DNA of 64,000 nucleotides. It comes from a virus. This document shows positions 15,001-18,000 of the stretch, one piece after another. Each line of letters begins with the position of its first letter. Position 1 is the first letter of the stretch. The position numbers were made by a program. The stretch covers positions 1 to 64,000 of IMG/VR virus record IMGVR_UViG_3300007735_000786, one strand, 5' to 3'.

Positions 15001-18000
15001 CAACGTCTTGCTCGTCCATCTTTTACCCTTGATTCTTTGTAAAAATCTTCAAGTAGTTTTAGTTCATTGCAGACACCGCAAACTTTTTTTGACATTACGA
15101 AAAATTTTAACTACGAATATTTTATCATTGCCAGTGCTCAAGCCTATGACAGTTAGCACATAAAGGAATACATTTATCAATTTCTTTTTGGATGCGCTGC
15201 CAGGCGTATCCTCCATGTAAAAGAGCTGATACTTTGTTATCCTTTTCTTTTTCGTGATGAAAATCTAACAATCGATAATCATCTGTTCCACAGCGCCTGC
15301 AACACAACGTCTTTTTGTACTCCAGCATTTTTTCTTTATTTTTTTGAAGTGTGCTTTTGGTGGATGGCACAAACTTCTTAAAACAAGTACACTGAGTATA
15401 GCTACTTTATTCACATGGAATCTGAAGACACCTACTTACTATTTCTGCGTATTGATCCAGGGGCAGATTATGGGAAGATTAAACTTGGACAATTAGAGTT
15501 AACTTGGTTTAATCCAGATGGGTGTGATGATGGATCCTTTTATTTGGGTTGGGGTAAATACTGGGAATTACGGATGGCATACTATAGATCATATGATATG
15601 TTTACTGGTAAGTTTGATAATGACTACAACTTTCCTGACTGGGAAATTATCTGTTACCAACCAGAGTTAGGTAGTTGGAAGCGTAGCGTCAATATTACAG
15701 GACGCGTAATGGATGCTATTAATTGCGTTAAGCGATTGTTTGGTAAATAATCGACCGTGCATGGAATCGAACCAGCTATCCAACTCCCTTGTCGGGGTGT
15801 CCTTACCAATGGACTAACGGTCGGTGCGCCCCCAGGTTTGTGCATCGTTGAGAGGCATAGGGGGTCAGCGAGCAGGAGACGATCAACTCCCCTGGCCTAC
15901 CAAAGTAGGACTTAGTACGCAAACCAAGTGTTAGAGGACTTGGCTGCACCCTACCGGCAGAGCAGTAGGGGTGGTAGATGGACCAGGTGTGTCGCCTTCT
16001 GAGCTATGTGCTCAACGCGCACAGTGACCTGGCCTCTATCAATTAATAGTATAACAAAAAAATCCCGGTTGCTCAAGCCGGGACATCAACTTTCGGAATC
16101 CCTCCTTAGGATTTTGAGCGGGTTAAGTATACCTTATTTTTTCTTGGCTGCAGCTTCTTTCTTCTTGGCAATCATTTCTTTAAACTTGTCGCGTGCTTCC
16201 ATTTGACCTTTAGATGCACCACCCTTACCCTTGGGTGCAGCAGCTTCTTTACCCTTAGCAGGCATTGCTTTACCCTTAGGAGCAACAGCTTTTTTCTTTT
16301 CCATTGGAATATTTATTCTCTTTTAATTATAGGTTACTTCTTCTTTGTTGGTTTAGATTGTCTTGCTTTTTTACCAGCTTCTTTGGCGGCTTTTGTGTTA
16401 GGTACAAATTGCTTGCCGGACTTACTAGCTTCTCTCTTCTTGCGATCAGTTTTTTCACGTTCTTCTTTTGATAAAGAAGCCCATGCTTTTTCTGGTAAAT
16501 ACCGTTTGGTATATCCAGGTTGGATAGCTTTGTCAGCAGCCATTACTTTGACTCCTTATATTTTTTAGCCGCAGACTTAGCTTTACTACGTTTTTCATAT
16601 TCATCTTTCGTGCCCCACTTCTCTTTTCCCCACCTCTCTAAATCTTTTTGCTTCTCACCTTTCCCCCCTTGGTATCCACCACCAGCTTTTTCATATTCTT
16701 GTGCAACAAGTTGAGCCTTACGTGCCGAAATTATTTAGCCTCACGGCTACGACCATTCCCCTGGTTTACCACCACGACCTTCACGCATTACACGGTTTTT
16801 AATGCGTTCACGAAGATCGGGTTTGGTGTACTTGCTTTTGTCTTCAGTCATAACTTCCTCGCTCTTTAAGATAAGTAACTGCGTTTGTCAATACATCTAT
16901 ATTATCACCAAACAAACCCAGGGCCCTGTTGCATCACGTAATTCCGGCTTAGTATATTTGTTATCTTCTTGAGCCATTACGTTCTTGTTTTTGTTCCTTT
17001 AATATTTTATCCCACTTACACGGACGCAAGAACTTATCCCAGTCTTTTCCTGGGTCTGGGATTTTTTCTTCTAGTTCTAAAAAGAACTTTTCAAATCTTT
17101 CCGATTCGGAAGGCAACTGTATCGTCATCTTTATCTTTAAGTTTTTGCATAATGTCATTCATCTGATCCAGGGTGTCGATTCGACAGATGAGTTCAGAGA
17201 TAGCACTGACAATTATGGGATGTTCGGTGCGTGCAGCAAAGGCTAGTGCCTCACGTAAATGAGAGACTGATTCATCTAGTGAACCTTTGACTTGACTGGA
17301 GAGTGCCATGATTGGAATTTATGGTATTTCTAGTATAGGTCTAACACCAAATCCAACCAACTTGATAGGAATCAAAGTACGGATCTACGCCTAGTGCTTC
17401 CATTAATTCATGTACCAAGCGTCCTTTCCCATGGCGTTTACTGTCGGCTGCTCTAATATTGTCATCAACAACAATTAAAGTACCTGGACCCAAGAGGTTG
17501 TAGCCTGCAAACAGTTCCTTTAGATGATGGGATGCTGGTGCCCAATCGTTATTCCAGTCGGTAATGTTGTAGGAATCTAGGTATAGGAGGTCTATTGGAC
17601 CAAAGAGGGTGTCTAGTGTTTCAACGGAATCACCTTCTATTACCTTGGCATGTTTGGTGTTCTTACGAGCCAAGGCGCAAGCCGCTGGATCGTTATCAAT
17701 TGAAATTAATTTTCCAGTGCCACGGATGTCGATGTAGTTGTCAAAGAGAAGGGTGGAGCACCCATCGCCTGTGTAGTTGTTTTCTTCTCTGTAGGTACCG
17801 GTCTCTACGATTAGTGGTTCTTTAGAGGCATCTAGGTATTGAAAGATTTTTTCAAAGGTTGATTGCCTGGCACCAAGACGTGTTTTAATGGGATCGAAGT
17901 AGTCATTCCAAGTGGTTTGAGTTGATTTCATGGCTAAAGTTCTATGCGCGTGTAGGGGATCTCTAAAGATTGTAGCTCCTGTTCGTACGTATCTGCATCT

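Follow-up and report, generated by a model that had tools for sequence, protein, structure and literature searches.

A cyanophage RNA island joins an orphan abiF RNA to a tRNA-shaped RNA: a candidate mimic of an antitoxin RNA

Introduction

Why should a phage carry the antitoxin RNA of an abortive infection system when its genome holds no gene for the toxin? The question is raised by a non-coding island at positions 15751-16040 (minus strand) of the IMG/VR virus record IMGVR_UViG_3300007735_000786, a record of 72.7 kb with an estimated completeness of 92%, of which positions 1-64,000 were analysed and are here called the window. The island consists of six back-to-back RNA modules, every one of which recurs in other cyanophages; the fifth is a member of the abiF RNA family (Rfam RF03085), and the sixth is shaped like a transfer RNA (tRNA). 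We propose, giving it about an even chance, that the island is an orphan abiF antitoxin mimic, which would be cut out by tRNA-processing enzymes and would keep the AbiF of the host silent.

AbiF, a HEPN ribonuclease, has the abiF motif as its RNA antitoxin, which binds it directly, also in trans (Saunier et al., bioRxiv 10.1101/2025.04.15.648962). The same antitoxin role is given in two reviews (PMC12737573, PMC13064643), secondary sources which state that single-stranded bulge nucleotides block the AbiF active site. AbiF-type proteins are inferred to be ancestors of Cas13 and have more than one mode of RNA use (PMC12165695, PMC12737573), and the only phage counter to AbiF in the literature searched is a hairpin in the cos site of the lactococcal phage sk1 (PMC13064643); these statements rest on the accessible portions of the sources. 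The same literature contained no reading of phage abiF RNAs as counter-defence and no mention of a junction with tRNAs, and the name abiF is absent from the main text of Weinberg et al. 2017 (PMC5737381), the supplements of which may list these motifs.

Results

An abiF RNA in a genome without the toxin gene

15828-15864, minus strand: orphan abiF RNA (Rfam RF03085), scoring 49.7 bits (gathering score 37) over positions 1-37 of the 37-position model

The first-pass annotation of this DNA, made from the sequence alone, had taken the stretch for a set of RNAs that mimic host antitoxin RNAs, and had named covariance models as a means of checking each module. Comparison with Rfam returned abiF as the sole family above its cut-off in the window (E = 3.4e-6, whole window). 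One module is thus an abiF RNA without its toxin, in partial support of the proposed mimicry, and four others, designated A to D below, match no Rfam family at E up to 10. Rather than being neither conserved nor like any defence-linked RNA, the modules are conserved and one of them is abiF.

The 19-nucleotide (nt) conserved core of the module equals the family consensus exactly, and the outer stem of 6 base pairs (bp), the 3-bp inner stem, the 11-nt loop and the 6-nt 3' bulge are all present, with one non-standard pair (the sixth of the outer stem); the loop CCUCUCAACGAU and the bulge CAAAC are those of the family. All 37 nt are identical (37/37) to the annotated abiF small RNA of Synechococcus phage S-CREM1, which is also an orphan and lies between tRNA-Gly and tRNA-Asn (PMC9964418). 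In the accessible text of that paper the Rfam match is recorded and no function is proposed, and a later review repeats it likewise (PMC12197685, accessible part). S-CREM1 also has a tRNA-shaped RNA, but this T4-like myovirus encodes a full set of tRNAs, whereas the motif in the window stands in a self-standing, promoter-driven island without a true tRNA. Identity that includes the stem, between two unrelated phages, suggests recent exchange.

A typical abiF RNA lies upstream of an abiF gene and is followed by a terminator and the toxin gene. The copy in the window differs, as the toxin domain Abi_2 (PF07751) gave no match at E up to 1 in the six frames of the 72.7-kb record. The tRNA-shaped RNA starts 4 nt after the motif, and beyond it comes the end of a convergent open reading frame (ORF), not an Abi_2 gene.

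Orphan abiF RNAs lie just upstream of tRNAs in many phages

A scan of IMG/VR for the 19-nt abiF core gave at least 120 loci, to which eight loci from another scan were added, and 124 instances were examined; the counts in this section hold among the matches listed. For the 121 instances with at least 130 nt downstream, tRNAs were called by ARAGORN. A tRNA started 2-8 nt after the end of the motif (30-36 nt after the start of the core) in 66/121 instances, and a same-strand tRNA lay within 400 nt in 76/121, with a tRNA ending just upstream in only 4. The partners at the 66 junctions were tRNA-Arg(UCU) (44), the tRNA-shaped element (4) and 18 tRNAs of 11 other species. The outer abiF stem kept at least 5/6 pairs in 61/70 distinct phage copies, built from 30 different 5' strands. 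The fixed, short distance from the abiF motif to the tRNA 5' end is compatible with RNase P freeing the hairpin.

Four isolate phages with complete genomes carry an abiF RNA that passes the cut-off:

S-CREM1: 52.2 bits; no Abi_2 in the complete genome
S-SRM01 (NC_070963): 49.3 bits; tRNA 5 nt downstream, both unannotated; no Abi_2 in the complete genome
Mycobacterium phage Thibault: 54.9 bits; nearest tRNA at a distance of about 270 nt; no Abi_2 in the complete genome
Salicola phage CGphi29: 50.1 bits; no adjacent tRNA; no Abi_2 in the complete genome

The figure of 4/4 without toxin refers to these complete genomes, the remaining blastn matches having been left out of the model check. A blastn search of plasmids with the 49-nt motif gave only two weak matches, at chance level. 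In S-SRM01 the abiF RNA and four tRNAs (55-67 bits) at positions 1506-2209 of the locus (L261) are absent from the annotation of the record, and a porin gene follows; in two further loci (L086, L090) an ORF for an OprB/SLH porin lies about 100 nt after the abiF motif. Thibault has a sub-threshold match to DUF3800-IV RNA (42.9 bits against 60.7) just before its tRNA-Tyr (L259, 2884-2965).

Across the 124 loci, ORF extraction followed by a Pfam scan, to which truncated ORFs and those below 120 amino acids are invisible, gave 52 complete same-strand ORFs of at least 120 amino acids with a start between -60 and +600 nt relative to the motif; one of these ORFs was Abi_2 (L183). The 52 included 10 HNH endonucleases and 7 calcineurin-like phosphoesterases, as well as integrases, porins and others. 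With HNH domains in 10/52 ORFs, homing-type nucleases often adjoin abiF-tRNA units. This survey bears on a reading in which the abiF RNA serves a partner other than Abi_2, such as a divergent phage HEPN or RNA-binding protein missed by Pfam, in a phage-internal toxin-antitoxin or guide-like pair. Many neighbouring phage ORFs are indeed without a family, and AbiF-type proteins use RNA in more than one way (PMC12165695, PMC12737573, accessible parts), but no Abi_2 signal appeared in the record even at E = 1 and the 124 loci have no conserved protein gene in common beside the motif, and we regard such a partner as improbable.

A tRNA-shaped RNA family found in phage DNA

15751-15823, minus strand: non-decoding tRNA-shaped RNA with a 7-bp acceptor stem, a D arm, a T arm with GGUUCGAUUCC, a mini-arm replacing the anticodon arm, and discriminator A15751

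The last module resembles true tRNAs (RF00005) in its acceptor stem, D arm and T arm, and has the elbow nucleotides U8, A14, G18G19 and those of the T loop. It differs in the anticodon arm, where a mini-arm of 4 bp with a bulged A and a 5-nt loop GACAA leaves no 5-bp anticodon stem or 7-nt loop. ARAGORN found 0 tRNA genes in the window and in relatives returned either 'tRNA-???' or a forced tRNA-His(atg), and Rfam gave no match to RF00005 in the window; the best match, to tRNA-Sec, had 19.5 bits where the cut-off is 47, and no tRNA or Y RNA family reached its cut-off. Bacterial YrlA Y RNAs carry tRNA-like domains.

A scan of IMG/VR for a 17-nt core of the element gave 79 loci, of which 55 were true relatives and 24 were dropped as chance matches in coding DNA. 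The 32 distinct sequences fit one cloverleaf, with 94.2% of 639 cells paired (29-49% in slid controls) and change on both sides at 9/20 pairs; the covariation score was reached by 0/500 shuffles. Because the core had been fixed by the scan, a model (R1) was built and run on 100 loci chosen for abiF instead. This gave 21 further members at 70-89 bits, while the closest true tRNAs, phage tRNA-His(GUG), scored 38.7-41.1 bits. Within these 21 the mini-arm stem covaries (CCCC/GGG-G, GGCG/CGC-C, GGCA/UGC-C, CUCC/GGA-G), and the bulged A is constant, as is the loop, GACAA in all but one case (AACAA). The element in the window scores 93.3 bits with R1 and is the sole tRNA-shaped gene in the whole record.

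S-CREM1, S-PM2 and S-EIVl each have a member; that of S-CREM1 (L001, 3526-3599, minus strand) scores 85.2 bits with R1, is called tRNA-His(atg) by ARAGORN and has no GenBank annotation. Directly after the S-EIVl member lies a second tRNA-like stretch with GGTTCAATCCC (L003, about 3970-4100, minus strand), which received no ARAGORN or Rfam call and is absent from the window. Among 185,579 species genomes, a 21-nt core of the element occurred in one contig (NZ_FBWL01000046.1, 413 bp, labelled Clostridium sp.), which consists of S-PM2 tRNA-array DNA joined to transposase adapter-like sequence and is a contaminant. The only match with a cellular label thus being phage DNA, the family is, at the level of exact matches, found only in phage DNA. 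The literature search gave no description of this family, as far as the accessible text of the sources extends; the supplements of a 2023 catalogue of viral structured RNAs (PMC10690425) may list it.

Four further module families with covarying stems

15977-16040, minus strand: module A, 5'-terminal leader hairpin, GAUAGAGG-CCAGGU ... ACCUGG-U-CC-AUC around the inner hairpin UGAGC-ACAUA-GCUCA
15949-15971, minus strand: module B, hairpin CCCUACUG / CGGUAGGG, loop CUCUGC
15919-15947, minus strand: module C, hairpin GCCAAGU / ACUUGGU, loop CCUCUAAC
15872-15913, minus strand: module D, AAGUCC, hairpin 1, GGCC and hairpin 2, the loop of which contains UUGAUCG

The six structured elements that had been placed on the minus strand in the first reading are all present in the sequence. 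Its three CTCT loops also occur as written; the suggested kinship between them was not recovered, save for a likeness between the 5' halves of module C and the abiF element, which the Rfam model does not report. Folding of the elements was compared with 200 shuffles each, and that of the whole 301 nt with 100:

15973-16040: z = -3.79, 0/200 shuffles as good
15948-15972: z = -2.48, 2/200 shuffles as good
15919-15947: z = -2.71, 4/200 shuffles as good
15865-15915 (module D): z = -0.57, 51/200 shuffles as good, not significant alone
abiF element: z = -1.38, 22/200 shuffles as good
tRNA-like element: z = -1.61, 7/200 shuffles as good
Whole 301 nt: z = -2.50, 1/100 shuffles as good

As this thermodynamic signal is modest, the main support is comparative, in that the modules recur in other phages with compensatory changes in their stems. 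The leader motif of module A was found at 44 loci in 21 distinct versions, and its stems covary (CCAGGU / GUAAGU / UUAAGU / UCAGGU). Module B has six distinct homologues, one of which (L032) shows a compensatory change from CCCUAC/GUAGGG to CCAUAC/GUAUGG. Module C has 5 distinct versions, and in two of them the stem is wholly replaced around an unchanged loop, by GGGGAGU/ACUCCCC in S-PM2 and by GGGAAGU/ACUUCCC in another locus (L063). The alignment of module D holds 24 sequences (23 distinct homologues and the window) with compensatory change at 4/9 predicted pairs. Parts of these motifs were fixed by the regular expressions of the searches, and invariance of those parts is therefore by construction. 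Comparative support of this kind makes A to D four real module families, which were not found in the literature searched.

Module D lies 1-7 nt upstream of the abiF motif in the window and in 9/122 viral instances (again among the matches listed), and 56 nt upstream in a tenth (L166). The loop of its hairpin 2 contains a self-complementary GAUC (UGAUCA in most of the 23 homologues), which could let two RNAs kiss; this motif was partly fixed by the search expression.

The arrays of relatives show how the modules are combined. The homologous intergenic region of S-EIVl agrees with that of the window in its terminator, in the -10 region and the GATAGAGG start, and in its tRNA-shaped end, and 13/16 IMG/VR relatives examined follow a common plan of promoter, leader hairpin A, variable modules, an element in the abiF slot and the tRNA-shaped RNA. 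In S-PM2, an unrelated T4-like cyanophage, modules C and D and the tRNA-shaped RNA lie inside the tRNA array. Rfam searches with the arrays of seven relatives gave, up to E = 0.5, a weak tRNA-Sec match on the tRNA-like element and no other family. Readings of the array as a tmRNA, a Y RNA, a riboswitch or a ribozyme were rejected, having no Rfam support.

Two alternatives have to be weighed against these data. The array may be an architecture for processing and stability only, its hairpins being leaders and spacers that shield and demarcate the precursor of a single product, the tRNA-shaped RNA (in other phages, tRNAs). The abiF-like hairpin would then leave AbiF untouched and serve as a 5' leader, either for RNase P or to hold off decay that depends on the 5' end. 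The tRNA-shaped element is indeed the constant part, two relatives (L022, L049) being reduced to the promoter and this element with no array, module content differs among close relatives, and the abiF motif is fixed at 2-8 nt before tRNA 5' ends among the matches listed. A mere spacer would, however, need no exact 19-nt core common to AbiF-linked RNAs; the loop sequences of modules C and D are kept while their stems covary, which points to recognition of the loops, and abiF RNAs also occur away from tRNAs, as in CGphi29 and Thibault. On balance we think an architecture of this kind unlikely.

The second alternative extends decoy function to the whole island, so that each module would be a decoy for a different host RNA-binding effector and the tRNA-shaped RNA one for tRNA-targeting nucleases. 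That one of the six modules belongs to an antitoxin family would agree with this, as would the swapping of modules as units between unrelated cyanophage lineages, always in tRNA arrays or in this island, and the retention of the GACAA loop and bulged A in a mini-arm whose stem covaries. Neither modules A to D nor the tRNA-like element match an Rfam family, however; the tRNA-like core lay in no real cellular contig of the one genome scan, and no tie of these five to a toxin was seen, leaving a complete cassette of decoys rather doubtful.

Boundaries and genomic setting of the island

16056-16083, minus strand: intrinsic terminator that closes the upstream block of small genes, with a UCCCGG/CCGGGA stem, a 9-nt loop and U7, read by eye and kept in S-EIVl and relatives
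16048-16076, minus strand: sigma-70-type promoter-like site, TTGAGC (16076-16071), 17-nt spacing and TATACT (16053-16048), 9/12 matches

The promoter-like site has a TG one base before the -10 element (TGnTATACT, an extended -10), and its -35-like TTGAGC lies inside the loop of the terminator hairpin, which a terminator scan had missed because the 9-nt loop exceeds the permitted 3-8 nt. The -10 region and the GATAGAGG that follows are kept in S-EIVl and in IMG/VR relatives, and transcription is likely to start at G16040. The G+C-rich stems reported downstream of TATACT are also evident, the G+C content being 0.553 (15750-16049) against 0.36-0.40 in the flanks. Taken with the recurrence of the modules and their compensatory changes, the promoter-like site upholds the first-pass view of a non-coding, promoter-driven array of separately folding, conserved RNAs with a tRNA mimic last.

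The approximately 290 nt after the promoter contain no credible ORF, and the end of the island coincides with the stop codon of a convergent plus-strand ORF (15415-15750). Mechanical ORFs of 41-63 amino acids overlap the stretch (minus strand 15654-15845, 15803-15949 and 15951-16076; plus strand 15757-15915) and would be what one expects if it acted as DNA or coded for short peptides, but substitutions in homologues preserve base pairs and not reading frames, and modules are gained and lost as RNA-sized units, so that such a role is hardly credible.

The closest isolate to the window phage is Synechococcus phage S-EIVl, with 71.7% identity over 36% of a 4-kb query, and near-identical DNA occurs in freshwater, riverine and lake metagenomes, with 16 runs holding at least half of the sampled words (13 studies, possibly including the source sample). 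That the phage is an S-EIVl-like freshwater cyanophage and the island one short non-coding transcription unit is, when taken jointly with the whole orphan-antitoxin reading, evenly balanced in our estimation. Genes of replication or early type surround the island, for a ferritin-like protein, endonuclease VII, a methyltransferase and a D5-type primase-helicase. Upstream lies a block of small minus-strand genes, the last of which is a basic, Lys/Ala-rich ORF of 56 amino acids (16304-16134) with no Pfam family and a conserved homologue in one relative (L049). S-SRM01 has an ORF annotated as 'histone H1' (L261, 1072-1260) among those just before its abiF-tRNA cluster.

AbiF in cyanobacteria and the RNAs linked to it

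Two plasmids of Synechocystis sp. PCC 6714 carry Abi_2 genes, as a tblastn search with one AbiF from a phage contig showed, and at least one cyanobacterium thus has the AbiF target. On pSYLB (Abi_2 at 199 bits) an abiF-like RNA of 29.7 bits, below the cut-off, lies 88 nt upstream of the gene, and a similar RNA was read by eye on pSYLA. With the pSYLB Abi_2 as query, 54 metagenome loci with relatives were obtained, of which 44 were examined by a crude stem-plus-CAAAN search; this gave 11 credible upstream RNA elements. In Rfam, three of the Abi_2-linked elements scored 58-60 bits and seven scored 24.6-32 bits, and second copies in two cases reached 41.4 bits; AbiF-linked RNAs thus vary apically, by inserted hairpins, and yet keep the outer stem and the 3' CAAAY bulge. 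Two AbiF loci (L208, 1008-1109, and L209, 899-1000) hold tandem abiF motifs, a canonical one of 59.9 bits and one with an apical insertion of 41.4 bits, and in this resemble RCd22 of C. difficile as described in the accessible part of its source.

Discussion

The observations of the first-pass annotation were confirmed and its interpretation was supported in part. The island holds a member of the abiF family in a genome without the toxin gene, the motif meets tRNAs at a fixed junction in many phages, and all the modules are conserved; a function against AbiF is plausible from these sequence comparisons.

On the mechanism that we infer, from transcription through processing to AbiF binding in a host that has AbiF, a constitutive-type promoter would drive an RNA of about 290 nt that begins with the protective hairpin A, continues through modules B, C and D and the orphan abiF RNA, and ends in the tRNA shape. 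RNase P would cleave where the tRNA-shaped element begins, 4 nt past the abiF hairpin, and RNase Z or exonucleases would trim its 3' end, so that the abiF hairpin would be set free, or at least stably displayed as tRNA leaders are. Hairpin A at the putative start and the tRNA fold at the 3' end would bracket a stable RNA. When infection stops host transcription, the labile AbiF antitoxin RNA of the host would decay, and the phage-made copy would occupy the AbiF HEPN dimer and keep the abortive-infection RNase inactive.

A precedent is pseudo-ToxI of Pectobacterium phage TE (PMC3475682, accessible part), likewise a phage RNA that resembles a host antitoxin (there of type III) in a phage without the toxin gene; it differs in its toxin, ToxN, and in its repeat architecture, and its function was shown by escape mutants, whereas that in the window phage is deduced.

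The T4 species 1 and 2 RNAs (rnaC/rnaD) are stable non-tRNA RNAs of phage tRNA clusters, the functions of which were long unknown. They are likewise small structured RNAs beside tRNAs and presumably co-processed, a likeness of description, and the island in the window differs from them in standing alone without tRNA genes.

Several points weigh against an antitoxin mimic. AbiF in the host of the window phage is presumed, and since 44/66 junctions involve a single tRNA species, part of the junction count reflects shared descent. Close relatives have larger variants at the abiF slot that lack the CCUCUCAAC loop and receive no Rfam call, although the outer stem and a 3' ACAAAC bulge are kept. This is partly offset by the seven AbiF-linked RNAs with apical hairpins, which likewise score below the cut-off; the first 10 and last 18 nt of the relatives' variants are the same as in the window motif, with an apical hairpin inserted, and we infer that they belong to the same class as abiF RNA. 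The window has a single abiF motif, whereas AbiF-linked RNAs, such as RCd22 and the two tandem loci, often have two. Finally, two metatranscriptome contigs match 15907-15975 and 15917-15999 at at least 95% identity in unlike flanks (four RNA-labelled runs), but these carry only modules B and C and may be DNA, and two runs labelled 'RNA?' are probably DNA; being contigs, such matches show neither transcription nor ends.

A wider scheme, which we offer as a speculation of low probability, is that phages of cyanobacteria and other hosts exploit the setting of tRNA processing quite generally to deploy RNA decoys. AbiF would be silenced by the abiF copy, and transcripts may dimerize through the GAUC/UGAUCA loop of the adjacent module D and so present a pair of abiF hairpins to the dimeric AbiF. 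The tRNA-shaped RNA, with its fixed GACAA mini-arm, and modules A to C may act on other RNA-binding defence effectors, for example tRNA-targeting nucleases, as decoys or sponges. This would make the island, in line with the first-pass annotation, an RNA anti-defence cassette built of modules that are shuffled horizontally.

AbiF has recently been shown to be an RNA-antitoxin system and a likely ancestor of Cas13, and natural phage counters to it are largely undescribed. The analysis adds a tRNA-shaped RNA, encountered in phage DNA only, and four module families supported by covariation, and culturable systems in which they could be studied exist in S-CREM1 on Synechococcus CB0101, S-PM2 on WH7803, and S-EIVl. 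The orphan abiF RNA spans phages of cyanobacteria, of mycobacteria and of a halophilic gammaproteobacterium, and more than half of the sampled copies, among the matches listed, lie 2-8 nt before a tRNA. That distribution points to a widespread and directly testable RNA counter-defence, for which tRNA processing may be the route of maturation.

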